From Christensenellaceae bacterium (GTDB lineage Bacteria; Bacillota; Clostridia; Christensenellales; CAG-138): a stretch of 64,000 nt of DNA. Position 1 is the stretch's first letter, and the number at the start of each line of letters is the position of its first letter. Positions 14,664 to 63,186 of the stretch are shown here, piece after piece. The stretch is from assembly GCA_031261085.1 (NCBI GenBank), contig JAISKB010000018.1:14409-78408 (forward strand). The letters run 5' to 3'. The notes under the pieces are model-generated. The model saw only the letters and a list, made by a program, of their open reading frames with translations. It had not been told where the DNA came from and did no database searches. A program made the position numbers and the translations under genes.

Positions 14664-14682
14664 CCCAACGCCCACCCACTAA

Positions 14683-14704: not shown

Positions 14705-14793
14705 AACTATATTAAAAAACTTTGTTTTTGGGGGCTTTGCCTCGGCTGCGGCGCGGCCGCAACACCCCTCCTTCCCCATAAAAGGAGTATCTT

Positions 14794-29809: not shown

Positions 29810-29945
29810 GGCTCTCCTCTTTACATGCACATATGCCCTCATATCGCGCGGCATGAGGGTGTGGAACGAATCACTCCTGCTATTATACCCATTTTTTGTG
29901 CGATGAACAAGCGAAAGAGGGAATAAGTTTTACCCCGTATACTTT

Positions 29946-49693: not shown

Positions 49694-49770
49694 GCGCCTG
49701 TAGCTCAGCTGGATAGAGCAACGGCCTTCTAAGCCGTAGGCCCAGGGTTCGAATCCCTGCGGGCGCGCCA
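49694..49770 (+). tRNA. tRNA-Arg (anticodon UCU)
   Basis: Hand-folded cloverleaf: acceptor GCGCCUG/CGGGCGC, D arm GCUC...GAGC, anticodon stem ACGGC/GCCGU with loop CUUCUAA, T arm CAGGG-UUCGAAU-CCCUG, encoded CCA. Confidence 0.9.
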
Positions 49771-49867
49771 ACCCTATTTGCGTTTGCATCTTGCGATAGC
49801 AAGTCAAGCGCAGCAGGCGTGCGGGGTATCTTTTTCGGAGTACCCTGCCACATCCGTTTCATGATAT

Positions 49868-49946
49868 GGTGGGTATAGTTCAGCCTGGTTAGAATGCCAG
49901 ATTGTGGCTCTGGAGGTCGTGGGTTCGAGTCCCACTACCCACCCCA
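49868..49946 (+). tRNA. tRNA-His (anticodon GUG) with encoded G-1
   Basis: G-1 plus acceptor GUGGGUA/UACCCAC, anticodon stem CCAGA/UCUGG with loop UUGUGGC, T arm GUGGG-UUCGAGU-CCCAC, C73, encoded CCA. Confidence 0.9.
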
Positions 49947-50014
49947 TATTGCCATGAGTGGCCGTGCCGGTTCGCCTGAGTGGCGCGTTAGTGCGGCCAT
50001 CTCATTACCCACAA

Positions 50015-50089
50015 TGGGGTGTCGCCAAGCGGTAAGGCACGGGACTTTGACTCCCGCATGCGTAGGTTCAAATCCTGCCACCCCAGCCA
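50015..50089 (+). tRNA. tRNA-Gln (anticodon UUG)
   Basis: Acceptor UGGGGUG/CACCCCA, anticodon stem CGGGA/UCCCG with loop CUUUGAC, T arm GUAGG-UUCAAAU-CCUGC, encoded CCA. Confidence 0.88.
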
Positions 50090-50131
50090 AGATTCAGGCT
50101 GCCCAGGGCATTTTCCCTGCACAGCCATCGT

Positions 50132-50154
50132 GACCCGTTAGCTCAGCGGTGAGG
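50132..50154 (+). pseudogene. truncated tRNA 5' fragment (acceptor strand + D arm only)
   Basis: GACCCGU-UA-GCUC-AGCGGU-GAGg is a textbook tRNA 5' third. The sequence then runs straight into a terminator hairpin, with no anticodon or T arm. Confidence 0.4.
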
Positions 50155-50227: not shown

Positions 50228-50277
50228 TTGACAAACACAGGCAAGTATGTTGTAATATTAATTAATCAAATTAATTA
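50228..50277 (+). promoter_or_regulatory. promoter of the transketolase operon with an overlapping AT-palindrome (candidate operator)
   Basis: TTGACA (50228-50233), 17-nt spacer, TGTAAT (50251-50256) with an upstream TGt. It is immediately followed by the inverted repeat TAATTAAT-caa-ATTAATTA (50259-50277). The 10-mer TATTAATTAA lies at 50256-50265. Confidence 0.6.
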
Positions 50278-50289
50278 TAATAATAAATA

Positions 50290-50309
50290 TAGAATTAAAT
50301 AGAATTAAA
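50290..50309. repeat. perfect tandem 10-mer (TAGAATTAAA x2) in the operon leader
   Basis: 50290-50299 and 50300-50309 are identical. Confidence 0.8.
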
Positions 50310-50376: not shown

Positions 50377-51246
50377 ATGTTGGATAACCAAAGAGAACTG
50401 CTGGAACGCATGAGTGCCGATATTCGCATACAATTTTTAAAGATGTTCGGCAAGCTGGGCTTTGGGCATGTTGGCGGCTGTGCCTCCATAGCGGATGTAC
50501 TCGCCGTGTTGTATGGCGGCATGATGCGCGTGGATCCAGCCAACCCGGCCGCACAAGACAGGGATTGGCTGGTGCTCTCCAAGGGCCATGCGGCGCCGGC
50601 ACTATATGCGGCGCTGGCGCTGCGGGGGTTTTTCCCCATGGAATGGCTTGCAACGCTGAACATGCCCGGCACAAAGCTGCCCAGCCATGCCGATGCGCGA
50701 ACGGTGCCCGGTATAGATTTTTGCACGGGATCGTTGGGGCAGGGTATTTCGGCGGCGGTGGGCATATGCCTTGCGAACCGCCTGAAAGGGCAAAGCAGCT
50801 GGGTGTATTGCATACTGGGCGATGGGGAACTTAACGAAGGGCAGGTGTTTGAAGCCTGCGGCACTGCGGCGCACTATGGGCTGGACCATTTTATATGCTT
50901 TGTTGACTGGAACAAAAAGCAGCTGGACGGAACGCTTGCGCAGGTGCAAAACCCTGTGGATATAGCGGGGAAATTCAAGGCCTTTGGTTTTGATACGCAG
51001 ATGGCAAGGGGCTATGATGTGGAGGATATCCACGCGTGCATATTGCGGGCAAAGGACGCGCCGGACGCGCCGCATTGCATCGTACTGGATACCTACAAGG
51101 GGTTAGGCATCGACTTTGCGGAAGAGCAGGAACACAACCATCACCTTGTTTGCAGCGCGGAGCAATGCGCCGCCGCTATAGAAGAAATTGAAAGGCGCCT
51201 AAAAGAGGGCTGCTATCCCGGAGGTATGCGTTATGGTAAAGCTTAA
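50377..51246 (+). CDS. transketolase, N-terminal (TPP-binding) subunit
   Basis: Split-transketolase pattern GHVGGCASIADVLAVLY, and GSLGQGISAAVG...GDGELNEGQVFEA (TPP motif). Confidence 0.9.
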   Translation: MLDNQRELLERMSADIRIQFLKMFGKLGFGHVGGCASIADVLAVLYGGMMRVDPANPAAQDRDWLVLSKGHAAPALYAALALRGFFPMEWLATLNMPGTKLPSHADARTVPGIDFCTGSLGQGISAAVGICLANRLKGQSSWVYCILGDGELNEGQVFEACGTAAHYGLDHFICFVDWNKKQLDGTLAQVQNPVDIAGKFKAFGFDTQMARGYDVEDIHACILRAKDAPDAPHCIVLDTYKGLGIDFAEEQEHNHHLVCSAEQCAAAIEEIERRLKEGCYPGGMRYGKA

Positions 51247-52201
51247 GCAAACGCCTGCGGCGGGGGCACAAGAGATGCGCGGCGCCTGCTGCGAAGCGCT
51301 GATGGAAGAAGCGGGCAAAAACGACAGCATCGTGGTAATCAACTGCGATTTATGCGGGCCTATGGGGCTAAAGCTGTTTGAAAAACAGTTTCCAACGCGC
51401 TCCATCAACGTGGGCATTGCAGAAGCAAACGCGTGCAGCATGGCGGGCGGGATGTCGGCGGCGGGCATGGTTCCCTTTTTTGTTACGTTTGCGGTATTTG
51501 CAAGCCGCCGCGTTTACGACCAGGTTTTTATGAGCTGTGCGTACCCGGGCCTAAATGTAAAGATTATCGGCGGGGATTCCGGCGTGACCAGCGAATACAA
51601 CGGCGGCACGCATATGGCGTTTGAGGATGTCGGCATGCTGCGGATTATGCCCAACATCACCATAATGGAGCCTTCGGATACGGTGATGATGAAGGCGCTT
51701 ATCCGGGAAATGACGCGCACATACGGCGTACAATACCTGCGCACGCCGCGCAAAAAAACGCCGCAAATATATGAGGAAGGCACGGCGTTTGAAATAGGCA
51801 AAGGCGTTGTGCTGCGCGAGGGTAGCGATGTTACGCTGATGGCGTATGGGATTACCGTGTGTGAAGCGCTTAAGGCGGCGGATGTGCTCAAAGAAGAAGG
51901 CATCTTGGCGCGCGTGGTGGATATGTTTACGATAAAGCCGCTGGATAAGGCATGCGTGCTGGAAAGCGCAAGGCGTACCGGCGCGATTGTAACCGCCGAA
52001 AACCATCAGGTAACAGGCGGGCTGGGCAGCGCCGTGGCGGAGCTGCTTTCCGAAACCCTGCCAACGCCCATCGAGCGCGTGGGCGTGCAGGATGAATTTG
52101 GCGAAGTGGGCACGCAGGCTTACCTGATGGAGCGATTTAGCCTTACGGCCGCGTCGATTGTTGAAAGAGCAAAGCTGGCGGTTGCCAGAAAAAACAGTTA
52201 G
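51233..52201 (+). CDS. transketolase, C-terminal (pyrimidine-binding) subunit
   Basis: INVGIAEANACSMAGGMSAAGMVPF, a later GGTHMAFEDVGMLR, and the C-terminal domain. Overlaps the N-subunit gene by 14 nt. GGAGG RBS. Confidence 0.9.
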   Translation: MVKLKQTPAAGAQEMRGACCEALMEEAGKNDSIVVINCDLCGPMGLKLFEKQFPTRSINVGIAEANACSMAGGMSAAGMVPFFVTFAVFASRRVYDQVFMSCAYPGLNVKIIGGDSGVTSEYNGGTHMAFEDVGMLRIMPNITIMEPSDTVMMKALIREMTRTYGVQYLRTPRKKTPQIYEEGTAFEIGKGVVLREGSDVTLMAYGITVCEALKAADVLKEEGILARVVDMFTIKPLDKACVLESARRTGAIVTAENHQVTGGLGSAVAELLSETLPTPIERVGVQDEFGEVGTQAYLMERFSLTAASIVERAKLAVARKNS

Positions 52202-52228
52202 CCAAACAAGGGCGGAAAGGGATAACAA

Positions 52229-53599
52229 GTGGAACAGAGCTACATTGATATGCTGCTTGAAAAAGCGAGGAAGGCGCAGCGGGAGTTGGAGTCGTATACG
52301 CAGGGGGAAATCGACCGTATCGTAAAGACGATAGGCAAAACCATATACGACAATGCAGAAGTGCTTGCGGAGGAAGCGGTGAAGGAATCCGGCTTTGGGC
52401 GCGTGGACAGCAAAACCTGGAAGCAAAAGAAAACCTGCGTCGCCGCGTGGAGATACCTGCGGGATAAAAAATCTACCGGCATTATCGAGGAGGATTTTCT
52501 CCACGAGGTTATTACATATGCAAAGCCCATCGGCGTGATTGCATGCGTGGCGCCCAGCACCAACCCAACCTCCACTGTGGCGAGCAACGGCATGAGCATC
52601 ATAAAGGCGGGTAACGCGATGATCGTTGCGCCGCATCCACGCACCAAAGGATGTACGCAGCACGGCGTTGCGCTGATTAACGCGGCGCTGGCCAATATAA
52701 AATCGCCCGCAAACCTTATACAGGTTATTGAGGCGCCCACCATGGCGCTTTCGCAAGAGCTTATGAGCAAGTGCGACGTTACCCTTGCGACCGGCGGCGT
52801 AGCCATGGTAAAGGCGGCCTATTCCAGCGGGAAGCCCAGCTTTGGCGTGGGGCAGGGGAATGTGCAAACCATCGTTGCGGCGGATTACAGCGATTATGAT
52901 AACGTCGCTTCCATCGTAACCGGCAACCGCGCTTATGATAACGGCGTGCCCTGCACATGTGACCAGTGCCTACACTTCCCGAAGGCGGCGGAGGAGCAAA
53001 TACTTGCCTCGTTCCAAAAGAGCGGGGCGTATATCCTTAATGACGAAAAGAAGATAGACGAGCTGCTCACCATCATGTTTCAGCCAAACGGGGCCATCAA
53101 CCCGCAAAATGTGGGCATACCCGCCATTGAGCTTGCCAGGCGGTTGGGGATTGATGCGCCCGAGGATACGATGATATTGATGGCAAAGGCGCGCGGCGTG
53201 GGCCGGCAGGATATGCTTTGCAAGGAAAAGCTGAACCCCGTGCTTGCCTATATGCCGTATGCGGCATTTGAGCAGGGTGTGCAAAACGCGAAGGAAAACC
53301 TGCTTATGGAGGGCGCGGGCCATTCCGCGGTGGTGTTTACGAACGAAACGGAAACGGCAAGCCAGGTTGGCGCCATACTGCCCGTAAGCCGGGTTGTGGT
53401 AAACCAGGCGGGCGGCACGGCCTCCGGCGGAAACCTGTGCAATGGGCTAAACCCTACCATGTCGCTTGGCTGCGGGAGCTGGGGCAACAACAGCATCAGT
53501 GAAAACCTGACCTACCGCCACCTCATGAATATGACGAAGGTCGCGTTCCCCATCAAGGGCGCAACGTTCCCAACGCCGGAGGAAGCGTGGGCAGATTAG
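52229..53599 (+). CDS. CoA-acylating aldehyde dehydrogenase, SucD type (substrate unknown)
   Basis: By my recollection it aligns along its whole length with Clostridium kluyveri acylating succinate-semialdehyde dehydrogenase (LIEKA..AQ..LE.Y.Q, APHP..K, VKAAYSSGKP.(F/Y)GVG.GN, YDNG..C, LGCGSWG.NSISENLTY). GTG start. Confidence 0.8.
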   Translation: MEQSYIDMLLEKARKAQRELESYTQGEIDRIVKTIGKTIYDNAEVLAEEAVKESGFGRVDSKTWKQKKTCVAAWRYLRDKKSTGIIEEDFLHEVITYAKPIGVIACVAPSTNPTSTVASNGMSIIKAGNAMIVAPHPRTKGCTQHGVALINAALANIKSPANLIQVIEAPTMALSQELMSKCDVTLATGGVAMVKAAYSSGKPSFGVGQGNVQTIVAADYSDYDNVASIVTGNRAYDNGVPCTCDQCLHFPKAAEEQILASFQKSGAYILNDEKKIDELLTIMFQPNGAINPQNVGIPAIELARRLGIDAPEDTMILMAKARGVGRQDMLCKEKLNPVLAYMPYAAFEQGVQNAKENLLMEGAGHSAVVFTNETETASQVGAILPVSRVVVNQAGGTASGGNLCNGLNPTMSLGCGSWGNNSISENLTYRHLMNMTKVAFPIKGATFPTPEEAWAD

Positions 53600-53613
53600 C
53601 GGGAGGTAATGGT

Positions 53614-54804
53614 ATGCAGTATAGCCGCCTAAAAAATAAATACGCCATAGCCGGCATAGGCTATACGCCGCAGGGGAAGGTGCCGGGGCGTACGGCCGCA
53701 AGCTTCCACGCGCAAGCATGCATCAACGCGGCAAAGGATGCCGGGGTCGCCCTGCAGGAGGTAGACGGCCTGCTGCTATACCGCCATTTCCCACCTGTGG
53801 GCGAGGATATAGAAACGACCGCCTTTACCGTTGCAGAGCAGCTTGGCATACAGCCCGCAATCTTGGGGCAGGAGCATTACTGCACGCGCAACGGCCTGCC
53901 GCAGGCCATCGGATTGCTGGAAAGCGGCCTGTGCAACTATGTGCTGATTTCCTATGGGGATAATGCCCGCAGCGGGAAGCGCAGCTTTGTGAAGGAGGTC
54001 ATAGGGGAACAGGCCACGGATGAGCTTGCGGCCTATGGGGATATGAGCACCCTTGCGAAATACGCGATGCTTGCACGGCGCGCGGAGTATGAATTTGGCA
54101 CGGGCGCGCACGTTTGGAAGGAAATCGCGCTTGCGCAGCGCGCTTGGGCGCAGTTGAACCCCATTGCGCAAATGCACGGGAAGCCGCTTACGGATGAACA
54201 ATATGAAAACGAGCGGATGGTGGTGGAGCCGTTCCGCCTGCTGGACGCAACGCCGGTGAGCGATGGGGGGCGGGCCATACTGCTTACCTCCGCAAAAAAC
54301 GCGCATCGCCTAAAGCAGCCGCCGGTTTATATATCCGGCATAGGGTTTGCCAACCGGCCGGAATCCCCCTATAGGCATGTGCCGGGGGACCCGTATAGCG
54401 CGGCGGCGGTCGCCGCCAAACAGGCATTCCAGATGGCGGGCGTTACCCATAAGGATATCGATGCCTGCGAGCTTTATGATTGCTTTACCTACACGGTTGA
54501 GTCCCTGCTGGTGGACTATGGCTTTTGCAAAGCAAACGAAAGCGGCGCCTTCATCACGCGGGGACGGATAGGGCCGGGGGGCGCGCTGCCCGTGAACACC
54601 TCCGGCGGGATGCTTTCGGAAGCGTATTTTATGGGTATGACGGCAATTTGCGAAGCGGCGATGCAGCTTATGGGCCGCGCCGGAGAAAGGCAGTTGGGGG
54701 AGCGAACGGGGACAAAAGCGCCCAAAACCATCGTCTGCGGCGATAACGGCGGCGTGTTCCAAAGCCATTGCACGCTGATACTATCCGGGGGGATACAAGT
54801 ATGA
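53614..54804 (+). CDS. SCP-x-type thiolase-like protein with non-canonical catalytic motifs
   Basis: Thiolase fold pattern (YAIAGIGYTPQG, PVSDGGRAILLTS, NTSGGMLSE). The usual ACASG and GHPLGATG blocks read HYCTRNG and EAYFMGMTA here. GGGAGG RBS. Confidence 0.7.
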   Translation: MQYSRLKNKYAIAGIGYTPQGKVPGRTAASFHAQACINAAKDAGVALQEVDGLLLYRHFPPVGEDIETTAFTVAEQLGIQPAILGQEHYCTRNGLPQAIGLLESGLCNYVLISYGDNARSGKRSFVKEVIGEQATDELAAYGDMSTLAKYAMLARRAEYEFGTGAHVWKEIALAQRAWAQLNPIAQMHGKPLTDEQYENERMVVEPFRLLDATPVSDGGRAILLTSAKNAHRLKQPPVYISGIGFANRPESPYRHVPGDPYSAAAVAAKQAFQMAGVTHKDIDACELYDCFTYTVESLLVDYGFCKANESGAFITRGRIGPGGALPVNTSGGMLSEAYFMGMTAICEAAMQLMGRAGERQLGERTGTKAPKTIVCGDNGGVFQSHCTLILSGGIQV

Positions 54805-55214
54805 TACATATTCCGCCTAAAATTTCATGTGACACGGCGCCATTTTGGGCCGCCTGCAACGAGCGCACGCTGCAGCTTAGGCAATGTGAGGCGTGCGGCC
54901 ATATATACTGGCCGGCGGCGCCCTTTTGCCCGGCCTGCGCATCCGCCAACGTAAAATGGCAAAAGCTCACGGGGGAAGGCACCGTGTTTTCATATGTGGT
55001 ATTTCGGCAGGCGTTTGACGCAAGGCTGCAGGAGGCGATACCCTATGTGGTTGCGGTGATACGCCTGCGCGAGGGCCCCAAAATCGTATCCAACATCCTA
55101 TGCTGCCCGCCCGAAAAAATATTTATCGACATGCCGGTGCGGGTAGCCTGGAGCGAGGAAGGGATACAGCGCGTTCCGCAGTTTGTACCGTGCGGCACGG
55201 GGGCAAAAGCATGA
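54801..55214 (+). CDS. DUF35 Zn-ribbon/OB-fold protein (thiolase partner)
   Basis: CEACGHIYWPAAPFCPAC rubredoxin-like ribbon followed by an OB-fold block (GEGTVFSYVV...PYVVAVIRLREGP). ATGA overlaps on both sides. Confidence 0.8.
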   Translation: MIHIPPKISCDTAPFWAACNERTLQLRQCEACGHIYWPAAPFCPACASANVKWQKLTGEGTVFSYVVFRQAFDARLQEAIPYVVAVIRLREGPKIVSNILCCPPEKIFIDMPVRVAWSEEGIQRVPQFVPCGTGAKA

Positions 55215-56545
55215 AGGTTTTAATCATAGGCGGCAACGCCGCGGGCATGAGCGCCGCCTCCAAGCTAAAGCGCAGCATGCCGCAAACGCAGGTTGTCGTT
55301 TTTGAGCGCGGCGAAGAAACCTCCTATGGCGCCTGCGGCCTGCCTTATTACATAAGCGGGGAAAACCCGGATATCGACCTTGTGCGCATACGCAAGCCCG
55401 ATGCATTTTTGCAGGAAGGGATAGACCTGCGCCTGCGGCATACGGTAGCAAGTGTGGATACCGAAGCAAAAACCGTGGCGGTGCTAAACGGCGCGGGTGG
55501 GGAAGCCTATGAGGAAACATATGACAGGCTGATCATAGCGAGCGGGGCCGCGCCCATCGTGCCGAATTGGCCCGGCGTGAGCTTAAAAAACATATTCTCG
55601 CTAAAAACAATCTCCGATGCCGAGGCAATTAAGCGCTGCCTTGCGCAGCCGGGTATAAGGCGCGTGGCGATTGTAGGCGGTGGGTATATCGGGCTTGAGA
55701 TTGCCGAAGCCTGCATACGGCTGAAAAAGGAGGTGCGCATACTGGAAGCGGCGCCACACTGCCTCCCCGCATTTGACCCGGAATTTGGCGCGGCCGTGAA
55801 ACGGGAGCTTGAAAATCACGGCGCACAGGTGCATACGGGCGAGAGGGTGGCGGCCTTTACGGGCGAAGAAGCGCTGAGCGGCATACTTACGGAAAGCGGT
55901 GCGCGATATGAAGCGGATGCGGCTATCATCGCTATAGGCGTGCGGCCCAATACGCGGTTTTTCCGCCCGGAGCAAATCCATATGCTGGGGAATGGGGCGC
56001 TTATTGTGGATGCTGCGATGCGCACCAGCGCCACCGATATTTATGCGGCGGGGGATTGCGCCACCGTGTACCACAGGCTGCTGGATGCGCCCGTATACCT
56101 TCCCTTGGCCACAAACGCAAACAAACAGGGCCGGTTGGCGGCGGTAAGCGTGCTGGGCGGCGATGTATCCCTAAAGAGGGCGCTTGGTACAAGCATGCTG
56201 CGGTGCCTAAAGCTGGAGTTTGGCAAAACCGGCCTTACGCAAGCGGAGGCGCAGGCGCATTGCCTAAGAGCAAAAAGCATTACCATACAGGCAAAAACGC
56301 ACGCCCGTTATTACCCCGGCAGCGCCGATATCACCATACGCCTTTGCTACAACAGCGAAACAAAGGTGATACTGGGGGCGCAGCTGATGGGCGAAAAGGA
56401 AACGGCGTGGAGGACGGATGTGCTGGCCTGCGCGATAGACCGGGGCATGACGACGGAGGAGCTGGGTTACCTGGATTTGGCGTATTCCCCCATCTATGCA
56501 TCCGTGTGGGACCCAATACTCATAGCGGCGAATGCGGCAAAATGA
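55211..56545 (+). CDS. pyridine nucleotide-disulfide oxidoreductase, CoA-disulfide reductase/NADH oxidase-like
   Basis: MKVLIIGGNAAGMSAA (FAD motif), a single redox Cys in SYGACGLPYYI, and a second Rossmann motif VAIVGGGYIGLE. No rhodanese extension. Confidence 0.8.
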   Translation: MKVLIIGGNAAGMSAASKLKRSMPQTQVVVFERGEETSYGACGLPYYISGENPDIDLVRIRKPDAFLQEGIDLRLRHTVASVDTEAKTVAVLNGAGGEAYEETYDRLIIASGAAPIVPNWPGVSLKNIFSLKTISDAEAIKRCLAQPGIRRVAIVGGGYIGLEIAEACIRLKKEVRILEAAPHCLPAFDPEFGAAVKRELENHGAQVHTGERVAAFTGEEALSGILTESGARYEADAAIIAIGVRPNTRFFRPEQIHMLGNGALIVDAAMRTSATDIYAAGDCATVYHRLLDAPVYLPLATNANKQGRLAAVSVLGGDVSLKRALGTSMLRCLKLEFGKTGLTQAEAQAHCLRAKSITIQAKTHARYYPGSADITIRLCYNSETKVILGAQLMGEKETAWRTDVLACAIDRGMTTEELGYLDLAYSPIYASVWDPILIAANAAK

Positions 56546-56557
56546 AGGAGCGTGCCT

Positions 56558-57094
56558 ATGAATAACGCAGAATTGGCGGCGCACAACAAAAACCGCCGCA
56601 TCACGCAGGTTTGCTATGTTACGGATGATTACACGCGCACAATACAATATCTGTATCATGCGCTGCAATTTGGGCCGTGGAAAATTCTTTCCCTTTCAAG
56701 CGGGAATACCTCCAACGTAAGGCTGGAGGGAAAGCCTGTGGAAGAGCCGTTTGCGTTTGCCGTGGCGTTATGCTATATCGGCGCTATGCAGCTGGAGGTG
56801 GTTCAGCCGCTTCATGGCCCTACCGTATATGAAAGGTTTTTAAAGGAGCGCGGCCCCGGCATCCATCATATAAAAGAGAGCATGCCACGCGGTCAGGTGG
56901 AGGCGTTTATGCAAAAGGCCGCCGTGCAGGGGCACCGGGAAGCGTTTCATGGGGATGGCTTCCAGGGGGAAGAGGATGTGGACGGGTTTTGGTATATAGA
57001 TACCTACGCGCAGCTGGGCGCATATTATGAGCTTGGCAACAGTCCCGCCGTGCACCTGGCGGCGGATCAATATACGATGTGGCCGCAGGAGTAA
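56558..57094 (+). CDS. VOC (glyoxalase/bleomycin-resistance/dioxygenase) family protein
   Basis: 178 aa with paired beta-alpha-beta-beta-beta pattern, ...QLEVVQPLHGPTVYERFLKERGPGIHHI... GAAGGAG RBS 7 nt upstream of the ATG. Confidence 0.65.
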   Translation: MNNAELAAHNKNRRITQVCYVTDDYTRTIQYLYHALQFGPWKILSLSSGNTSNVRLEGKPVEEPFAFAVALCYIGAMQLEVVQPLHGPTVYERFLKERGPGIHHIKESMPRGQVEAFMQKAAVQGHREAFHGDGFQGEEDVDGFWYIDTYAQLGAYYELGNSPAVHLAADQYTMWPQE

Positions 57095-57112: not shown

Positions 57113-57148
57113 TTGACAGAAAAAGCATAGCATGATATTATTAATTAA
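57113..57148 (+). promoter_or_regulatory. promoter of the transaldolase gene carrying the same TATTAATTAA motif
   Basis: TTGACA (57113-57118), 17-nt spacer, TATTAT (57136-57141) with a TGa extension. TATTAATTAA at 57139-57148 overlaps the -10. Confidence 0.6.
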
Positions 57149-57271: not shown

Positions 57272-57925
57272 ATGAGACTTTTCGTTGATTCTGCAAACTT
57301 GAGGGATATTGAAACGGCGTTTGATATGGGCATCATATCGGGTGTTACGACAAACCCGGTGCTCATTCATAAAGAATGCCCGGAAAACAAGCTCAAGCAG
57401 CATATTCAAAGCATACGTTCCATTTGCGATGGAGAGATTTTAACGCAGGTCGTGGGCAGCACTGCAAAAGAAATGGTGCGTCAGGCCAAGGAAATCAATT
57501 CTTGGGATAGCAACATTACCGTGAAGATCCCCCTCGTGCGGGAAGGGATTAAGGCCGTGTCCATGCTGCAAAAAGAGGGCGGCATACGCACTTGCAACAC
57601 GATTACCTTCAATGCGGGGCAGGCGCTTGCGGCGGCCATGGCAGGCGCAACCTATATATCACCATTTTACAACAGGGCGAATAAGGATACGAATTGCGGG
57701 CTGCAGATGATGGAAGCCATCACGCAGATATTCCGCGTAAACGCGCTCAAAACCAAAATATTGGTTGCGAGCATTGACAAACCCATGGATGTGGTGAACC
57801 TGGCCATGCTGGGCGTTGATGTGATTACCGCGCCCCTGCCCGTGTGGGAGGGCCTGTTTGAAAACACATTGACCGACGCCGTACTCGCTAAATTCCTGAA
57901 AGACTGGAAAGGAGATGAAATTTGA
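57272..57925 (+). CDS. transaldolase family 3B / fructose-6-phosphate aldolase-like
   Basis: 217 aa reading MRLFVDSANLRDIE...GVTTNP, with the Schiff-base Lys in ITVKIP and then ISPFYNR. GGAGGT RBS. Confidence 0.88.
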   Translation: MRLFVDSANLRDIETAFDMGIISGVTTNPVLIHKECPENKLKQHIQSIRSICDGEILTQVVGSTAKEMVRQAKEINSWDSNITVKIPLVREGIKAVSMLQKEGGIRTCNTITFNAGQALAAAMAGATYISPFYNRANKDTNCGLQMMEAITQIFRVNALKTKILVASIDKPMDVVNLAMLGVDVITAPLPVWEGLFENTLTDAVLAKFLKDWKGDEI

Positions 57926-57950: not shown

Positions 57951-58014
57951 TAAAGCCGCTGTGCAGGTATCCGGCTTGTATAAAAACCAAATTTATAGGA
58001 AAGAAACAGGAATT

Positions 58015-59256
58015 ATGAGCACAGAAGTATTATCGCTACAGCAGAGGGGCAAAAACCTCGAAAGCGTTCAGGAGATGAACCGGGCCTCGGTTCTGCGGAT
58101 TATGATGAAGCGCAGCACGTGCTCGCGTGCAGAAATCGCCAGGGAGCTTGGTTTAAAGCAGGCGACCATTACAAACATCATCAACGATTTTTTGAGTTGG
58201 GGATTGGTTGTGGAAACGAGCCTGCTGAGCGGAAAAAAGGGAAGACGAAGCATAGGTGTGCAAATCAGCCAAAAGTCGTTTTATGTGATTGGCGTGCGGC
58301 TGCGCCGTACCAGCTATAAAGTAGGGCTTTTTGATATATATGGCGAGAACATCGTGATGGAAAAGTACCCTTACGATAAAAAACTGGGCCCCATGCGCGT
58401 GGTGCGCATGATGCGCGAAAGCATAGAAAACATGCTGCAAGCGCATGCGGATAAGCGCATCGTGGCAATAGGCGTGGCGGTGCCGGGGCCGTATTTTTCC
58501 GAAAAAGGCATGATATCCTCTATGACGGAGTTCCCGGGGTGGGAAGACATCCCGTTCCAGGAAGAGATGGCAAAGGGCTTTAGCATACCGGTCATCGTAG
58601 ACCACGACTCAAACGCCGGCGCGCTGGCGGAATGGTGGCTGGCGACAAACGAGCAGTTGTCGGGCACGCTCGTGTACATCGGCGCAGGCGACGGGATAGG
58701 CGCGGGCATATTGCACGATGGCGCGGTGTTCCGCGGCGCGATGGGGATAGCGGGCGAAATAGGGCATGCCAGCATAAACAAGGATGGGCCGGTGTGCGAA
58801 TGCGGGAACAGGGGCTGCCTTACAAACTATGTATCTACGCCGTATATGGCGCAAAGGATTAACGGGGCGCTTGCGGATTACCCCGGAACGATACTGAAAA
58901 GGGATAGCAGCTTTTTCGAAATCGTTGAGGCGATCAACAAAAAGGATCCGCTGGCGCTTTATGTATTCCGCGATGTAATGGGCAGCTTATCCATAGGGAT
59001 TATCAACGTTATATGCGCATATGGGCCAAATGAAATTATTATTTCGGACAGGTTCAGCCTGATTGGCGAGAGCATTATCGATACGCTGATGGAGATGGTT
59101 ACAGAGAAGGCCAAACGGAATTACTTTGAAAACGTTACGCTCCGCTTGGGCTCATTCACAAAGGATTCGTCCTTTATAGGCGCCGCGGCGCTGGCGATAG
59201 ACTACTGCTTTGGGAATTCAAACATATTCGAGCGAAGCGCAGGCGCGCAGGCATAA
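58015..59256 (+). CDS. ROK-family transcriptional regulator
   Basis: N-terminal winged helix-turn-helix (NRASVLRIMMKRSTCSRAEIARELGLKQATITNIINDF) plus a ROK sugar-kinase-like domain with the Zn motif CECGNRGCL. Confidence 0.88.
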   Translation: MSTEVLSLQQRGKNLESVQEMNRASVLRIMMKRSTCSRAEIARELGLKQATITNIINDFLSWGLVVETSLLSGKKGRRSIGVQISQKSFYVIGVRLRRTSYKVGLFDIYGENIVMEKYPYDKKLGPMRVVRMMRESIENMLQAHADKRIVAIGVAVPGPYFSEKGMISSMTEFPGWEDIPFQEEMAKGFSIPVIVDHDSNAGALAEWWLATNEQLSGTLVYIGAGDGIGAGILHDGAVFRGAMGIAGEIGHASINKDGPVCECGNRGCLTNYVSTPYMAQRINGALADYPGTILKRDSSFFEIVEAINKKDPLALYVFRDVMGSLSIGIINVICAYGPNEIIISDRFSLIGESIIDTLMEMVTEKAKRNYFENVTLRLGSFTKDSSFIGAAALAIDYCFGNSNIFERSAGAQA

Positions 59257-59410: not shown

Positions 59411-59884
59411 ATGAAAGTTGCAATGGGCGCAGAGCGGTTTGGGTATCCGCTTAAAGAAATTCTCGCAAAGCACCTTGTTGGGCAGGGGCATGAGATTATC
59501 GATTTTGGAATGTATGACTTGGAAAACAAACTCAGCTACATTTATGTGAGCGATGAAGTTTCGAAGGCCGTGGCATCCGGCGCGGCGGAGCGCGGTATCG
59601 TACTATGCTCCAGCGGTATGGGCGTCGCCATAGTGGCCAACAAGCATAAGGGCGTGCACTGCGCGCTGGTGGAAAGTGTGGATACGGCGCGTATGAGCCG
59701 GGAAATCAACGACGCGAATGTGCTTGCGCTTGGCGGTTCCGTTGTGGACGCGGCGCTTGCCACACAGATGGTGGACGCTTTTATGACGACGGAATTTGCA
59801 AGCGCGGGTGACGCGGCGCGGGCGGCATTGCTGCGCAGCCTAATCAACGAGGTAAAGGCGATGGAGGATGGGAACTTCAAATAA
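59411..59884 (+). CDS. rpiB: RpiB/LacA/LacB-family sugar-phosphate isomerase
   Basis: 157 aa with ERGIVLCSSGMGVAIVANKHKGV (catalytic Cys block) and NVLALGG. Specificity (ribose-5-P or another sugar) is not determinable. Confidence 0.85.
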   Translation: MKVAMGAERFGYPLKEILAKHLVGQGHEIIDFGMYDLENKLSYIYVSDEVSKAVASGAAERGIVLCSSGMGVAIVANKHKGVHCALVESVDTARMSREINDANVLALGGSVVDAALATQMVDAFMTTEFASAGDAARAALLRSLINEVKAMEDGNFK

Positions 59885-59968: not shown

Positions 59969-61291
59969 ATGAAAAAACTACTCTCACTCTTTGTAGCGCT
60001 GGCGATGATGTTATCGCTGACGGCCTGCACAACCGGGGCGCCGAACAGCACTGCCCCCGCGGGCACACCTGCCGCAACGGTGGAGAAGCCCGTGGCGGCG
60101 CCGGGAGAAACCGGCGATGTGGAAACGATAAAAATCGGCGTGCTGTTCCCTATGTCGGGTGGCTCGGCATCTTCGGGCAACCTATCATGGATGGGAACCC
60201 AAATGGCGGTGGATTACTTCAATAACAACGGCGGATTTAAAAACTTGAACGCGGCAGTTGAACTGGTGCTCATCGATACTGAGACCAAACCCGATGTAGC
60301 GGCCTCGGCATTTGAACGCCTTGTAACAGAAGAAAACGTTATTGGCGTAGTTGGCAACTTTAACAGCGCTACAAGCGCTACCTGTGTTCCCATGGCAATT
60401 AAATATGGTGTTCCTTATATTATTTCCGCATGCGCGAACGATAACCTGATGGAACAGGAAAATGATTATGTTTATCGGGTGGGCGCCGGGAATGCGGAAG
60501 TATATCAGAAGCGCATAGAATTTATTCAGTGGCTTGGCAATGCGACGGATGTGAAGACCGGCTCAATTATCTACAGCGCGGATGATTTTGGCGCGCAGAC
60601 TTCGGAGAGTTGGGCAAGCGTGCTTAAAGACGCCGGGATCGACATCATATTAACCGAATCGATTCAGGGGGGAGCTTCTGATTTAAGCGGCATAGTAAAC
60701 AAATTGAAGGCGTCTGACCCTGATTTGGCAATTGTCGTGCTTAATACGAATGAGGCGGTGCTATTCCAAAAGGGGCTCAAGGAGTATAATTGTAACGTTC
60801 CGATTCTGGCAGGCGGCGCTGGATATATGGAGCCTACTTTTATTGACACCGTAGGGAAAGATGCCGCAGAATATGTGTTTGTGAATACCGGATGGATACC
60901 CGATTCATTATCGAATTCTCCGGCTGTTGCTACCGACCTTGTGAATGAAGCATTGGCCAAATACGGCTATGAGTTTGCAGAAGCTTCTATGTATGCGTGG
61001 GCATCCACGGCAGTTTTGATAGATGCGATTGACAGAGCGGGAGTAATTGACAGAGAAGCTGTTGCGCAGGCCCTTAAGACGACGGATCTTGATAAGGATC
61101 ATTGGGTAAACATGTATACAAACTTGAGCGGAATTAAGTTTGGAACGGTAGATGGGCGCTATAATGTAAATGTAAACGTATTGTCCTTCTGCGCACAGGT
61201 TGTAGATGGCGAATGGAGAATAGTATGGCCGGACGATAATATTGCGGATAATCCTCTTGTGTGGCCCATTCCGAATTGGGACGAGCGTTAA
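59969..61291 (+). CDS. ABC transporter substrate-binding lipoprotein, LivK/Peripla_BP_6 type (ligand unknown)
   Basis: Lipobox LSLTAC, IKIGVLFPMSGG, and typical cluster-B SBP blocks. GGAGGG RBS. Confidence 0.85.
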   Translation: MKKLLSLFVALAMMLSLTACTTGAPNSTAPAGTPAATVEKPVAAPGETGDVETIKIGVLFPMSGGSASSGNLSWMGTQMAVDYFNNNGGFKNLNAAVELVLIDTETKPDVAASAFERLVTEENVIGVVGNFNSATSATCVPMAIKYGVPYIISACANDNLMEQENDYVYRVGAGNAEVYQKRIEFIQWLGNATDVKTGSIIYSADDFGAQTSESWASVLKDAGIDIILTESIQGGASDLSGIVNKLKASDPDLAIVVLNTNEAVLFQKGLKEYNCNVPILAGGAGYMEPTFIDTVGKDAAEYVFVNTGWIPDSLSNSPAVATDLVNEALAKYGYEFAEASMYAWASTAVLIDAIDRAGVIDREAVAQALKTTDLDKDHWVNMYTNLSGIKFGTVDGRYNVNVNVLSFCAQVVDGEWRIVWPDDNIADNPLVWPIPNWDER

Positions 61292-61327: not shown

Positions 61328-62104
61328 ATGGGGATAGAAGGGAAAGTAACTGCTGTTGTGGGCGGCGGGAGTGGCATTGGTGCAGGAATTTGTGAGCACT
61401 TTGCCGCCAAAGGGGCGAAGGTGGCGGTTTGTGATGTAAATGCGCAAAAGGCGCAGGATGTTGCGGACAGGATAGTAAAAGCCGGAGGAACGGCAATTGC
61501 CATGTGCTTTGATGTGCGGCATCGCCAAGAGATTGAGAAAAGCTTCCTATCAATCGAAAACGAGCTTGGTGAACTGGATGTTTTGGTGAATAGTGCCGGT
61601 ATATCTATAATCGTACCTTGCTTGGAGTGTACAGAAGAGATATGGGATTTGACGCTCGATATCAATCTAAAAGGCACGTTCCAATGCTGCCAGGCAGCGT
61701 TGCGGCATATGGCGCCCCGCAAACGCGGCTCCATTATCAACATCTCCTCCCAATCCGGTAAAGTGGGGCATACTGAATACCAGGCATATTGTGCCAGCAA
61801 ATTCGGTATTATTGGCGTTACCCAATCGCTTGCGGCAGAGTTTGCGCCTTTGGGAATTCGTGTAAATGCCATATGTCCCGGGATTGTGATGACGCAAATG
61901 TGGAAGGAACAGCTTCCTTCATATTGTAAAAAGCACCATTTTTCTGCCGAAGAAGCGGTGCCCTATATGGAAGGGAATATACCAATGCACCGATTGGGGA
62001 CGGTAGAGGATGTTGCGAATGTTGCGGAGTTTCTTGCGTGGAGCGAGTCAAGCTACATCACTGGCCAATCCATAAATGTCGTAGGCGGCTATATTATGCA
62101 TTGA
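61328..62104 (+). CDS. SDR-family oxidoreductase
   Basis: VVGGGSGIGAGI (TGxxxGxG-like), NSAG, and the catalytic YxxxK in YCASKFG. The start could be the ATG at 61328 or the GTG at 61319. Confidence 0.88.
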   Translation: MGIEGKVTAVVGGGSGIGAGICEHFAAKGAKVAVCDVNAQKAQDVADRIVKAGGTAIAMCFDVRHRQEIEKSFLSIENELGELDVLVNSAGISIIVPCLECTEEIWDLTLDINLKGTFQCCQAALRHMAPRKRGSIINISSQSGKVGHTEYQAYCASKFGIIGVTQSLAAEFAPLGIRVNAICPGIVMTQMWKEQLPSYCKKHHFSAEEAVPYMEGNIPMHRLGTVEDVANVAEFLAWSESSYITGQSINVVGGYIMH

Positions 62105-62283: not shown

Positions 62284-63174
62284 ATGGCAACAATTTATTT
62301 GCAAGCCTTAATTGATGGGATTTTACAGGGCGGCGTATACGCCACGATCGCGGTGGGACTTAGCTTATGCTTTGGTGTCATGGGGATCATTAATTGGGCG
62401 CACGGGGAAACGTTGATGGTAGGGATGTATATTTCCTATCTTTGCGTTCAGCATTTGGGGATGGATCCATATTTAACGATATTCATTACGGCCACAGTAT
62501 TGTTTGTTTTTGGCTTTTTGCTTCAAAAATTTGTTTTTAATGATTTGCTCAAGAGAGAGGTGGCAAGGGAGCCGCTGAGTGTGCTATTATCTACCGCAGG
62601 CTTGTCGATGGTGCTTTGGAATTGCATGACGATGATATTCGGTTCTTTTGTTATGGGGGTTAATACAAAATATTCGGGAACGACGATTCGACTTAATGAT
62701 TTGATTATTTCCAGACCTAGATTGATATCGTTTTGCATTGCATTGGTTGTAACGGGGGCACTTTACCTGTTTTTGCAAAAATCAGAGCAAGGCAGGGCGT
62801 TGCGAGCAACGGCTCAAAATAGAACGGTAGCGCGGCTGATGGGCATCAATATTGAATTGCTGTTTTGCTTGGCCTTTGGCCTTAGCTTGGCGCTGGTGGG
62901 CGTTTCGAGCGCACTGCTTATTCCAACCTTCCAAATATATCCGAAGGTAGGGGCGGTTTTTTCCAATAAATCATTTATAATCGTGGTGTTGGGCGGAAAG
63001 GGAGATGTAAAGGGAGCACTTATAGGCGGGCTGATTATTGGGATAATTGAGCGGGTTGGCGCGGTATTGCTAAATGAATCCTATGCTTTGGAACTCACGT
63101 ATGTGCTGTTCATAATAATCCTCCTGTTTATGCCGGAAGGCCTCTTTAACAGGAAGAGCAAAATGAAGGGTTAA
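62284..63174 (+). CDS. ABC transporter permease, LivH type
   Basis: 296 aa, polytopic, with N-terminal LQALIDGILQGGVYATIAVGLSL and the INWAHGE motif typical of HAAT-family permeases. Confidence 0.88.
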   Translation: MATIYLQALIDGILQGGVYATIAVGLSLCFGVMGIINWAHGETLMVGMYISYLCVQHLGMDPYLTIFITATVLFVFGFLLQKFVFNDLLKREVAREPLSVLLSTAGLSMVLWNCMTMIFGSFVMGVNTKYSGTTIRLNDLIISRPRLISFCIALVVTGALYLFLQKSEQGRALRATAQNRTVARLMGINIELLFCLAFGLSLALVGVSSALLIPTFQIYPKVGAVFSNKSFIIVVLGGKGDVKGALIGGLIIGIIERVGAVLLNESYALELTYVLFIIILLFMPEGLFNRKSKMKG

Positions 63175-63186
63175 TGGGTGGCATGT

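Follow-up and report, generated by a model that had tools for sequence, protein, structure and literature searches.

A transketolase-containing catabolic island of a Christensenellaceae bacterium, joined to a portable coenzyme A and thiol-redox cassette that could be a new kind of enzyme system

Positions 50377–57094 of a 64,000-nucleotide stretch of contig JAISKB010000018.1 from a Christensenellaceae bacterium (the window, by which we mean the whole stretch analysed) are occupied by seven genes that bring a split transketolase together with enzymes of coenzyme A (CoA) metabolism. The open reading frame (ORF) list and profile searches placed all seven on the forward strand in tight coupling, as described by a first-pass annotation made from the sequence alone, and its family calls were reproduced by Pfam and NCBIfam profile searches and by PDB sequence matches, scored in bits. 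The first two genes encode the subunits of the transketolase: a SqwG-like, thiamine pyrophosphate (TPP)-binding subunit (TktN, 50377–51246; Pfam Transketolase_N, 148 bits), whose closest homologues share 60–72% identity with it, and a SqwH-like Pyr/C-terminal subunit (TktC, 51233–52201; Transket_pyr and Transketolase_C). They are followed by genes for a CoA-acylating aldehyde dehydrogenase (ALDH) of the SucD/SauS/AdhE-N clade (52229–53599; NCBIfam AdhE-N, 379 bits), a thiolase-like protein with a predicted hybrid active site of C90, Y288-D-C290-F and Y338 (53614–54804; Thiolase_C_1), its DUF35 partner with a C-x2-C-x10-C-x2-C zinc ribbon and an OB fold (54801–55214; Pfam zf-ChsH2 and OB_ChsH2_C), a flavoprotein of the CoA-disulfide reductase (CoADR) type with Cys42 in the motif SYGACGLPY (55211–56545; NF007123, 486.5 bits, cut-off 458), and a VOC-fold protein resembling methylmalonyl-CoA epimerase (56558–57094; Glyoxalase_4). 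Of the seven proteins, five thus belong to the metabolism of CoA or CoA thioesters.

The close packing reported at first pass was also found. The tktN and tktC genes overlap by 14 nt, ATGA overlaps join the thiolase-like gene to the DUF35 gene (54801–54804) and the DUF35 gene to the CoADR gene (55211–55214), and the gaps at the remaining junctions are 27, 14 and 12 nt, all within the 30 nt originally given. A site upstream of tktN that had been called a consensus promoter (P1, 50228–50256, forward strand) is present, and reads TTGACA-17-TGTAAT with an upstream TG, which is near-consensus rather than consensus; the promoter scan did not list it because its second hexamer has G at position 2. 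That scan did list a second, strong promoter-like site, P2 (57113–57148, forward strand), consisting of TTGACA-17-TATTAT with TG, followed by ATTAATTAA. The P2 hexamers (57113–57141) lie inside the 177-nt gap that precedes a downstream gene for a transaldolase (TAL)/FSA-like enzyme. Promoter-like matches across the region occurred at chance level (16 found versus 14.2 expected from shuffled sequence), and both sites have counterparts in a related locus, L094, which conserves P2 and has TTGACA-17-TATTAT at the place equivalent to P1.

Directly after the −10 hexamer of P1 there is an AT-rich palindromic element, ATTAATTAAT...ATTAATTAT (50257–50290, strand not assigned), which is a candidate operator. 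Within the 64 kb window, ATTAATTAA occurs only directly after the −10 hexamers of P1 and P2 (50257–50290 and 57140–57148), and the sequence upstream of tktN can be aligned with that upstream of the TAL/FSA gene; together these features hint at a single regulator for both units. AT-rich elements of the TTAATTAA type are kept in L094 at approximately 300–340 and 7140–7175, along with both promoters. The AT-rich ATTAATTAA-type palindromes are candidate operators at which the ROK regulator (gene at 58015–59256) may act.

The genes had been taken to form a free-standing operon of seven, a view that was not borne out. They appear to be the first transcription unit of a horizontally acquired catabolic island of approximately 16 kb and 16 genes, and their order is continued downstream in L094. 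The genes that follow on the same strand encode the TAL/FSA-like enzyme, which has an altered pocket (57272–57925; NCBIfam fsa_talC, 211 bits), the ROK-family regulator, of the NagC/Mlc type (58015–59256; NCBIfam NagC 179 bits, Mlc 159 bits), an isomerase of the RpiB/LacAB family, to which SqwI belongs (59411–59884; TIGR00689, 122 bits, cut-off 88), a Liv/HAAT-type ABC substrate-binding lipoprotein (59969–61291; NCBIfam, Pfam Peripla_BP_5 and Peripla_BP_6), an SDR oxidoreductase (61328–62104, with an alternative GTG start at 61319; NCBIfam), and then the LivHMGF components of the transporter. Of these last, the window holds the LivH-like and LivM-like permease genes (62284–64000; NCBIfam), the second cut by the window end; a 16 kb twin contig (L001) supplies the second permease and two ABC ATPases beyond that end. 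The L001 gene call also supports the ATG start of the ROK gene, for which an alternative GTG start exists at 57961. The PDB matches of the binding protein gave no clue to its ligand. Since the otherwise collinear L094 island is missing the SDR gene, which lies between the binding-protein and permease genes, the SDR was probably added later or serves an accessory step.

The GC content at third codon positions (GC3) is 0.62–0.70 in the operon and 0.50–0.64 in the downstream genes, versus 0.73–0.80 in the neighbouring housekeeping genes. On its left the island is bordered by an array of tRNA-Arg(TCT), tRNA-His(GTG) and tRNA-Gln(TTG) genes (49694–50089, forward strand; ARAGORN), and by the left copy of a 23-nt direct repeat, GCCATCGTGACCCGTTAGCTCAG (50124–50146, forward strand), made up of 8 nt and the first 15 nt of a truncated tRNA-like gene. 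The repeat is single-copy within the window. Its right copy lies approximately 16.0 kb downstream, at L001 13843–13865 (window-equivalent ~66126), and runs into the 5′ half of a tRNA-Lys(TTT)-like gene (L001 13843–13887; window-equivalent ~66126–66170). It is because of the low GC3, the adjacent tRNA genes and the bracketing repeat that we call the region acquired. The island resembles an insertion into a tRNA gene, yet it encodes no integrase.

Relatives of the island were sought through the closest TktC homologues that have Pro at the canonical Ser position, which led to L094. This locus (GC 46.5%, about 10 points lower than the window genome) has the same 12 genes in the same order, TktN-TktC-ALDH-thiolase-like-DUF35-CoADR-VOC-TAL/FSA-ROK-RpiB-binding protein-permease, with 52–75% amino-acid identity. 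A further locus, L095, carries the first four genes (TktN-TktC-ALDH-thiolase-like), and a metagenome scan yielded one relative of 5.4 kb (L096). The transketolase lies directly beside the ALDH, thiolase-like, DUF35 and CoADR genes, which we refer to as the cassette, only in the window, L001, L094 and L095. Another locus, L009, was rejected as strong evidence for a second genome with transketolase plus cassette, its transketolase pocket being canonical (H/D). The retention of a 12-gene order at 52–75% identity despite a GC difference of about 10 points excludes chance, and the adjacency of these genes is far beyond it. The first-pass annotation had made its proposal depend on the genes staying together in relatives, which they do, and we are highly confident that the functional unit and its cassette are real.

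To read the substrate pocket, TktC was aligned with 6yaj and with human transketolase, using the SqwH residues in Supplementary Table S6 of Borusak et al.; known proteins of sulfoglycolysis and sulfonate metabolism were in general compared through published residue tables, Pfam architectures and PDB bit scores. According to Borusak et al., the pocket of canonical transketolases is R, S, F, H, D, R, that of the biochemically validated SqwH of MSTE9 is R15, A42, F85, D114, N122, R172, and that of the Faecalicatena enzyme is R9, A36, F79, D108, N116, R166. The window TktC has R16, P43, F86, D115, N123, R173. It therefore lacks the canonical phosphate-orienting R-S-F-H-R set and the acceptor Asp (His to Asp115, Asp to Asn123, Ser to Pro43) and has the SqwH-type pocket, in which both Arg are kept, the phosphate-binding His is Asp and the acceptor Asp is Asn; where canonical enzymes have Ser, TktC has Pro and SqwH has Ala. 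The thiamine diphosphate (ThDP)-domain Pfam matches and the catalytic Glu (in IAEAN) are present. The Asp/Asn pair was found in all 120 of the 120 closest TktC homologues, in the pattern RSFDNR or RPFDNR and not RAFDNR. The two conserved Arg argue for an anionic tail on the substrate. The pocket signals a tail that is anionic and is not phosphate, although it does not prove sulfonate, and it is quite likely that the transketolase acts on a non-phosphate substrate. A partial resemblance to the sulfo-transketolase (sulfo-TK) route, which had been noted without an assignment being made, is thus stronger than was thought, both from the TktC pocket and from the presence of a PF02502 isomerase.

This isomerase, encoded 2.3 kb downstream of the operon, keeps the catalytic Cys of its family; in alignments with the C. 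thermocellum and E. coli enzymes, the residues corresponding to H10, H99, R133 and H134 of E. coli RpiB, which we take to have functional roles in that enzyme, are changed. Its match to SqwI is at the level of the family only, SqwI having been assigned to Pfam PF02502 (PMC9594981). The TAL-like enzyme, aligned with the T. maritima and T. acidophilum proteins, keeps the Schiff-base Lys (in VKIP) and Asp6 and has Gln in place of the catalytic Glu60, as in FSA; Phe132 is kept and position 133 is Tyr. Its phosphate-site motifs are altered, SPFVGR being SPFYNR, with one Arg kept, and ASIR being ASID, with the second Arg replaced by Asp. It scores 211 bits on TIGR00875 (fsa_talC), below the cut-off of 246. 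No kinase, glycosidase or exporter was found among the 16 island genes, and kinase-free transketolase and transaldolase reactions are the logic of the sulfo-TK and sulfo-TAL routes. The altered anion pockets of all three enzymes and the lack of a kinase favour a substrate that is never phosphorylated.

Other Asp/Asn-type transketolases were repeatedly observed to be paired with aldehyde-disposing enzymes. In L091, which has TktN relatives of 67–69% identity, the genes encode IclR, a 505-residue ALDH, TktN, TktC, an iron-type alcohol dehydrogenase (Fe-ADH) and an AEC-type transporter. In L090, with TktN relatives in the same range (67–69% identity), TktNC and an Fe-ADH adjoin an aldehyde:ferredoxin oxidoreductase. 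The closest Asp/Asn transketolases, which are of the Ser type (TktC 71–72% identity), are those of L092/L093, in a cluster of LacI, a cupin, a ribose-type ABC transporter, a PF04199 cyclase, a metallo-beta-lactamase (MBL)-fold protein, two SDRs, TktN, TktC and a non-acylating ALDH of 504 residues. This conserved cluster looks like a further transketolase pathway without a kinase that has not been described, and its substrate may be a sugar acid.

The back end of the operon was examined residue by residue. The best PDB match of the ALDH is the acylating succinate-semialdehyde dehydrogenase SucD of C. kluyveri (CkSucD; 8cei, 417 bits), and the catalytic Cys and the equivalents of the His and Thr/Ser are kept. 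CkSucD binds the distal carboxylate of its substrate through Lys70 and Ser243. In the window ALDH Ser243 is Thr and the place of Lys70 is taken by Thr69, though a conserved basic residue (K/R69 in CkSucD numbering) directly precedes that place. The pocket is polar and basic, unlike the hydrophobic pocket of PduP. The ALDHs of the cassette conserve K66, K/R69, Cys-Thr243 and Gly395 in every context, which suggests that one kind of polar or anionic aldehyde is handled throughout.

The thiolase-like protein, taken at first pass to make or break a C–C bond with its DUF35 partner, does not have the active site of an ordinary thiolase. C90 aligns with the nucleophilic Cys of thiolases (in EAACASG; 7yvy and 6esq), and is invariant in the 26 of 26 family members aligned, but both of the catalytic His residues are replaced by Tyr, HDCF being YDCF and GHP being AYF (within SEAYFMG), and these residues, Y288 and Y338, are likewise invariant in all 26. 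In profile alignments Y288 and Y338 correspond to Tyr294 and Tyr344 of Ltp2, and C290 to Cys304 of Sal. An AlphaFold2 model (pTM 0.83) gave Foldseek matches to 4u4e, Ltp2, Sal, PhlC-type acyltransferases and archaeal thiolases. As judged from these alignments, the predicted active site is a hybrid rather than that of an ordinary thiolase.

The flavoprotein is most similar in the PDB to the B. anthracis CoADR 3cgb (345 bits), and C42, Tyr367/368 and Tyr425, which align with the B. anthracis enzyme, are kept in the 27 of 27 cassette copies examined. By sequence it is a CoA-disulfide reductase, having the single redox Cys, the set of Tyr residues, both the FAD and the NAD(P)H domain and a profile score that exceeds the cut-off. 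The VOC protein, which had been assigned to its fold only, could be specified further. The top Foldseek matches of its AlphaFold2 model (pLDDT 97) are methylmalonyl-CoA epimerases (3gm5, 6wf6, 6bu2, 3rmu and 1jc5; TMt up to 0.79, identity 14–23%). Its invariant residues E80, H104 and E158 form an E/H/E triad of the metal-binding type, the first ligand position being Gln and not His. It has no NCBIfam match, and belongs to a small family with 9 representatives at E ≤ 1e-30.

The thiolase-like protein has over 2,000 relatives in the database, and its family is encoded at 269 loci in 185k species genomes. This distribution showed that the cassette is independent of the transketolase. Neighbours were counted from tblastn presence/absence tables. 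At 59% or greater identity to the window protein (39 non-redundant loci), the CoADR gene was adjacent in 36 of the 39 loci and the SucD-like ALDH gene in 26. The CoADR gene lay directly downstream, or beyond genes for a GntR regulator and a 2-hydroxyacid dehydrogenase, and the ALDH gene directly upstream. Below approximately 56% identity, in the remaining retrieved loci (Deltaproteobacteria, Dehalococcoidia and Desulfurella), there was essentially no CoADR and no ALDH. The four-gene cassette, ALDH-thiolase-like-DUF35-CoADR, was found in about 25 genomes of gut Clostridia, in which a transketolase is not the usual neighbour. The first-pass assumption of the transketolase as the partner of these genes consequently did not hold: the cassette mostly occurs in clusters with a class II aldolase and methylthioribose (MTR) kinase or in SuyAB-like clusters.

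Ten of the 39 loci are dihydroxyacetone phosphate (DHAP)-shunt clusters, with MTR kinase (367 bits, cut-off 275), MTR-1-phosphate isomerase (325 bits, cut-off 271; both NCBIfam), class II aldolase and often an Fe-ADH and an MFS transporter. DHAP-shunt clusters of this MTR type release methylthioacetaldehyde. A LarA racemase (568 bits, cut-off 460) adjoins the cassette in 8 loci. In 7 loci there is a short SuyA-like protein without a Pfam match, together with a SuyB-like protein of PF20629+PF04295 architecture, accompanied either by a phosphotransferase system (PTS), zinc-type alcohol dehydrogenase and FucA-like set or by a TctABC and RraA-like set. Another 7 loci have a BMP-type ABC transporter, a VOC protein, a homocitrate-synthase-like protein and GntR. 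A dehydrogenase of PF00389+PF02826 architecture, that of SlcC, is present in 15 loci across contexts, and TctA in 4. We read these contexts as linking the cassette to sulfur. For comparison, SuyB is a PF20629+PF04295 protein, SuyA has no Pfam match and SlcC is PF00389+PF02826; TctABC-type (TTT) systems import sulfoacetate and sulfolactate elsewhere. The sulfoacetate importer of Bilophila is a TctC-family system, and the Bilophila SauS was first annotated as SucD. In some loci the thiolase-like protein, DUF35 protein and CoADR (the trio) stand on their own (L004/L005 and L025), and in L049 and L053 the trio is followed by an ORF, not profile-scanned, that resembles a Cat1-type CoA-transferase.

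Several other features of the cassette loci were observed. In L028, L032–L035, L039, L041 and L048 an HMGL-like protein (homocitrate/isopropylmalate-synthase-like) replaces the ALDH directly upstream of the thiolase-like/DUF35 pair; in these variants GntR and 2-hydroxyacid dehydrogenase genes precede the CoADR gene, and the upstream genes encode a small VOC protein and an ABC transporter of the BMP (nucleoside-like) type. The gltX/thiolase-like/DUF35/CoADR region of L043/L049, which were binned as Candidatus Acidoferrum and Terriglobales, closely matches the Oscillospiraceae contig L053, and this taxonomy probably reflects a binning error in public metagenome-assembled genomes. In Subdoligranulum (L002/L003, 7502–8503) a PF00756 esterase, of what we take to be the family of S-formylglutathione hydrolase, a thioesterase, is encoded directly upstream of the cassette ALDH, and the cluster has two paralogous MTR-kinase-like genes.

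What is shown is which genes the island holds, how they are coupled and co-conserved, which pocket residues are substituted and where the cassette occurs. We describe the island as a kinase-less pathway of the sulfo-TK/TAL type joined to a new back end, and that back end could be a new kind of enzyme system. Our preferred reading, which we put forward tentatively and with a confidence that falls short of even, is that an anionic and probably sulfonated sugar would be broken down without a kinase and that the remaining aldehyde would be converted to an acyl-CoA, which would then undergo reductive C–S cleavage. From the above evidence we infer the sulfonated substrate, the order of the steps and the reductive cleavage. 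For the first of these in its broader form, a substrate that bears sulfur, the chances appear only a little below even; the reductive C–S cleavage step is doubtful.

In the preferred reading, the Liv-type ABC system would import a sugar that is never phosphorylated and has a non-phosphate anionic tail, most likely a sulfonate or another sulfur substituent, and the RpiB/LacAB-like isomerase would make the ketose. The SqwGH-type transketolase and the TAL/FSA-like enzyme would pass C2 and C3 units to phosphorylated acceptors of central metabolism, so that no kinase would be needed, and a short aldehyde bearing the tail, such as sulfoacetaldehyde or sulfolactaldehyde, would be left over. The SucD/SauS-type ALDH would oxidize it (X-CH2-CHO to X-CH2-CO-SCoA) with the production of NADH. 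Up to this point the general logic of the first-pass annotation, a TPP-dependent ketol transfer leaving an aldehyde that is trapped as an acyl-CoA, is judged to be right.

Beyond the acyl-CoA, the thiolase-like/DUF35 pair would cleave the C–X bond by a thiol-dependent reductive step to give acetyl-CoA and X−, in an active site that may be built to stabilise the enolate of acetyl-CoA. The CoADR would spend the NADH in re-reducing a CoA-containing disulfide formed at each turnover, and the methylmalonyl-CoA-epimerase-like VOC protein would enolise or epimerise the alpha-substituted acyl-CoA. The net reaction, X-CH2-CHO + CoA to acetyl-CoA + X− (X being sulfite or a thiol), would be redox neutral, and the back end would be a portable cassette that other Clostridia couple to different aldehyde-forming front ends. 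This part of the model starts from the CoADR, whose gene, overlapping by codons with that of one enzyme family across several families of Clostridia, implies a CoA-containing disulfide or related S–S species at each turnover. To this we add the NADH-making ALDH upstream, the two invariant Cys and the front ends that release sulfur-substituted aldehydes. The model would account for the missing exporter, and fits the trio-only loci (L004/L005, L025) and those with the Cat1-like ORF (L049, L053). In its fullest form the cassette would be a so far unrecognised C–S lyase, independent of oxygen and radicals, that converts sulfur-substituted acetaldehydes to acetyl-CoA and sulfite or thiol, with sulfoacetaldehyde (from sulfosugars) and methylthioacetaldehyde (from methylthioribose) as candidate substrates. 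Two active-site Cys, or CoA itself, would drive the reductive cleavage of the bond beside the thioester carbonyl. We regard this lyase as an unlikely outcome.

Several findings weigh against the sulfonate pathway. The 16 island genes include none for SqvD (PF02952)/YihS, SqvB (DUF4867), a sulfoquinovosidase, SqwF/SqwE or SqwKL, and none of these was seen in the rest of the window, which was searched by ORF list and N-terminal sequences. The first-pass annotation likewise saw no sulfoquinovosidase, sulfolyase or sulfonate/sulfite exporter in the window. The ALDH aligns with the SauS model over its full length and scores 370.5 bits, below the cut-off of 600 and beside 379 bits on AdhE-N. Ordinary transaldolases match the TAL-like enzyme much better (170 bits) than BmSF-TAL does (84 bits), and the WAR motif is missing from it. 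The neighbours of the transketolases in L092/L093 suggest carboxylate-tailed sugar acids over sulfonates, and there is no precedent for a Liv/HAAT-type binding protein for sulfosugars. The SuyAB-like and SlcC-like proteins of the cassette loci are matches of architecture only, and galactarate dehydratase gives the large subunit a score of 223 bits as well. As for the chemistry, no enzymatic precedent was found for a thiol-driven cleavage of a C-sulfonate bond, and according to a 2026 review of sulfoquinovose metabolism strict anaerobes need radical enzymes to cleave the C–S bond of sulfonates.

Among the alternatives, the one that survives best is that the anionic tail is a carboxylate in place of phosphate, so that the island would degrade a uronate or keto-aldonate, a possibility to which we give roughly one chance in four. 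Glyoxylate, tartronate semialdehyde or malonate semialdehyde would then be released by the transketolase and the TAL-like enzyme and converted by the ALDH to oxalyl-, tartronyl- or malonyl-CoA; the VOC protein would epimerise the malonyl-type thioester, the thiolase-like/DUF35 pair would decarboxylate or condense it, and the CoADR would be accessory. The cluster of L092/L093 suits such a pathway, with two SDRs, a cyclase, a non-acylating ALDH and an MBL-fold protein (perhaps a lactonase) adjoining its Asp/Asn transketolases, as does the fact that the best structural relative of the window ALDH is SucD and that a basic pocket residue is kept in the cassette ALDHs. The resemblance of the VOC protein to methylmalonyl-CoA epimerase, the galactarate-dehydratase-like protein (223 bits), RraA-like aldolases, 2-hydroxyacid dehydrogenases and TctABC among the cassette neighbours, and the slow decarboxylation of malonyl-CoA by TbSLP, a relative with the YDCF motif, point the same way. 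What a carboxylate fails to provide is a stoichiometric role for the CoADR, linked in 36 of 39 loci, or an explanation for the 10 DHAP-shunt loci with equivalog-level MTR kinase and isomerase, and the H-to-D and D-to-N pocket has so far been documented only in sulfofructose transketolases.

A more conventional scheme, close to that of the first-pass annotation, is in our estimation unlikely, a little more so than the carboxylate. In it the transketolase cuts a ketose, a plain aldehyde (acetaldehyde, glycolaldehyde or lactaldehyde) is converted to an acyl-CoA, a thiolase/DUF35 pair of the ordinary kind makes or breaks acetoacetyl-CoA as in archaea or BbsAB, and the CoADR merely keeps CoA reduced or serves as an NADH oxidase. 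The family annotations fit this scheme, C90 aligns with the thiolase nucleophile, and thiolase/DUF35 complexes are established; moreover, DHAP-shunt and FucA-like contexts can give acetaldehyde or lactaldehyde, and the LarA equivalog (568 bits, cut-off 460) lies beside the cassette in 8 loci. Against it, both thiolase His are Tyr (YDCF, SEAYFMG) in 26 of 26 aligned members, the ALDH pocket is polar or basic and not hydrophobic as in PduP, and the two conserved Arg of the transketolase pocket argue for an anionic tail. The earlier suggestion that the CoADR keeps CoA, or a persulfide, reduced, taken as a housekeeping role, is also a poor fit with its linkage in 36 of 39 loci, since one would not expect a housekeeping enzyme to show translational coupling with a single enzyme family in four or more families of Clostridia.

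A further reading, that the thiolase-like/DUF35 pair is a CoA-dependent aldolase, follows from the two Tyr (Y288 and Y338) that match both of the catalytic Tyr of Ltp2 and from C290, which matches the catalytic Cys304 of Sal; Ltp2 and Sal are its second and third best sequence matches and its best characterised structural matches, and an aldehyde dehydrogenase is adjacent. The pair would join acetyl-CoA and the sugar-derived aldehyde to a 3-hydroxyacyl-CoA, or cleave such a thioester, and the ALDH would supply acetyl-CoA or remove the aldehyde, mirroring the Sal-then-Sad steps of steroid side-chain degradation. Ltp2 and Sal have no nucleophilic Cys, however, whereas C90 is invariant here, and the CoADR and the epimerase-like VOC protein are left unexplained, so that we think this reading distinctly improbable. 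Fortuitous adjacency of unrelated genes, for which one could cite the presence of a transketolase directly beside the cassette only in the window, L001, L094 and L095 and the canonical transketolase near the cassette in L009, is improbable in the extreme, considering the 12-gene order kept in L094 (52–75% identity, 10-point GC difference), the overlapping start and stop codons and the recurrence of the cassette in 25 or more genomes.

Some narrower possibilities were considered and set aside. A "deoxy-TK" route for a neutral 6-deoxyhexose (fucose or rhamnose) offers no role for the Arg pair, the basic ALDH pocket, the CoADR or the VOC protein. The conversion of glycolaldehyde to glycolyl-CoA was likewise set aside. 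The VOC protein is nearer in fold to methylmalonyl-CoA epimerase than would suit a CoA-dependent glyoxalase, and the CoADR keeps Cys42 and the Tyr set, which does not suit a rubredoxin-type reductase for the DUF35 zinc ribbon. The binding protein, of amino-acid type, and the substitutions to Asp made S-ribosylhomocysteine attractive as a substrate; it was set aside, as it leaves the transketolase without a role.

The remainder of the window, positions 1–49600, is housekeeping-looking by ORF content, with a uniform GC3 of 0.73–0.80; its genes are named here from ORF size and N-terminal sequence only. It includes an apparent cell-division/cell-wall gene cluster at approximately 0.6–8.5 kb, ORFs of 768 and 170 residues that look like an anaerobic ribonucleotide reductase and its activase (12357–15306), and a 1151-residue Mfd-like ORF adjoining a Pth-like ORF (25714–29854).

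We found no description of the cassette, the gene combination or the predicted intermediates in the full-text literature, in agreement with the earlier statement that no described pathway combines these genes. Sulfoquinovose and related organosulfur sugars are made on a gigaton scale, and their anaerobic breakdown in the gut feeds H2S production. The 2026 review gives only two fates of sulfoacetaldehyde, through SqwF/SqwE or SqwD/SqwKL, and every anaerobic route described so far excretes an organosulfonate or needs a glycyl-radical enzyme for C–S cleavage. With a transketolase of the sulfofructose type and, in place of an exporter, an undescribed CoA/thiol-redox cassette, the island would suggest that the sulfonated or thioether fragment is disposed of in a new way. 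The presence of the cassette in 10 of 39 loci as part of methylthioribose DHAP-shunt clusters makes directly testable how anaerobes recover the sulfur of methylthioacetaldehyde, a gap of long standing. If the C–S lyase reading were true, fermenting gut Clostridia would mineralise sulfonates and salvage sulfur without glycyl-radical enzymes, the ThDP enzyme Xsc or oxygenases. Even without sulfur, two families would be delimited by this analysis, transketolases with an Asp/Asn pocket for non-phosphorylated substrates and thiolase-like enzymes with Cys plus Tyr/Tyr tied to a CoADR; present annotations go no further than "transketolase", "thiolase family protein" and "CoA-disulfide reductase".

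Of the known systems, the sulfo-TK route found in Clostridium sp. MSTE9, Acholeplasma and Faecalicatena (SqvD, SqwGH and SqwI, then SqwF/SqwE or SqwD/SqwKL) is one with which the island shares a split transketolase with an Asp/Asn pocket, a PF02502 isomerase, an acylating ALDH of the SauS clade, the absence of a kinase and hosts among the anaerobic Clostridia. A TAL-like enzyme stands beside the transketolase, as in the bifurcated pathway of Faecalicatena. Unlike the sulfo-TK pathway, the island has no SqvD, SqvB, sulfoquinovosidase, SqwF reductase with exporter or ADP-forming ligase SqwKL, its TktC has Pro43 where SqwH has Ala, and its transporter is of the Liv type and not the SBP_bac_1 type. 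Among the genes for the fate of sulfoacetaldehyde, a SqwD-like acylating ALDH is present in the island and no Fe-ADH, exporter or ligase was seen there, the trio being in their place; the acyl-CoA would therefore pass to a thiolase-like/DUF35/CoADR trio that is absent from the known variants of sulfoglycolysis.

The DHAP shunt for the salvage of 5'-deoxynucleosides and 5-methylthioribose (MtnK, MtnA and Ald2) is likened to the system through the 10 related genomes in which the cassette sits inside such clusters, which leave methylthioacetaldehyde or acetaldehyde; the window itself, in contrast, has no kinase, MtnA or class II aldolase. Described DHAP shunts reduce the aldehyde to an alcohol, and an acyl-CoA branch was not reported in the literature found. 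The net reaction proposed for the cassette would have the same outcome as Xsc plus Pta (sulfoacetaldehyde + CoA to acetyl-CoA + sulfite). Xsc (sulfoacetaldehyde acetyltransferase), however, is one ThDP enzyme with acetyl phosphate as its product, whereas the cassette would use oxidation by NAD+ and then reduction by NADH by way of CoA thioesters.

The steroid side-chain aldolases Ltp2-ChsH2(DUF35) and Sal-Shy(DUF35) share with the window pair the SCP2-thiolase fold, the DUF35 partner, the Tyr of YDxF, the second Tyr of Ltp2 and the Cys of Sal. The window pair differs from them in retaining Cys90, in its identity of only 27–28%, in its Clostridia hosts and in having sugar- or sulfonate-type neighbours and no steroid genes. 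With thiolase/DUF35 pairs that have a nucleophilic Cys it shares the architecture and that Cys, and differs in the loss of both His (HDCF to YDCF, GH to AY); it has no HMG-CoA synthase or PhlA partner, and a near-obligate CoADR neighbour instead.

Reductive cleavage of a C–S or C–Se bond beside a carbonyl by thiol/disulfide chemistry is carried out by 2-ketopropyl-CoM oxidoreductase/carboxylase and by glycine reductase protein C with thioredoxin reductase. These systems capture the enolate or acetyl thioester, and their cycle is completed by a disulfide reductase that is a flavoprotein. They act on other substrates and have no sequence kinship with the cassette beyond the flavoprotein superfamily, and we offer the analogy as a lead and not as a finding. 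Finally, the known CoADRs (B. anthracis, S. aureus and Pyrococcus) and the CoA-persulfide reductases are stand-alone enzymes of thiol homeostasis or sulfur reduction, unlike the CoADR of the cassette, which is linked to the thiolase-like/DUF35 pair in 36 of the 39 loci.

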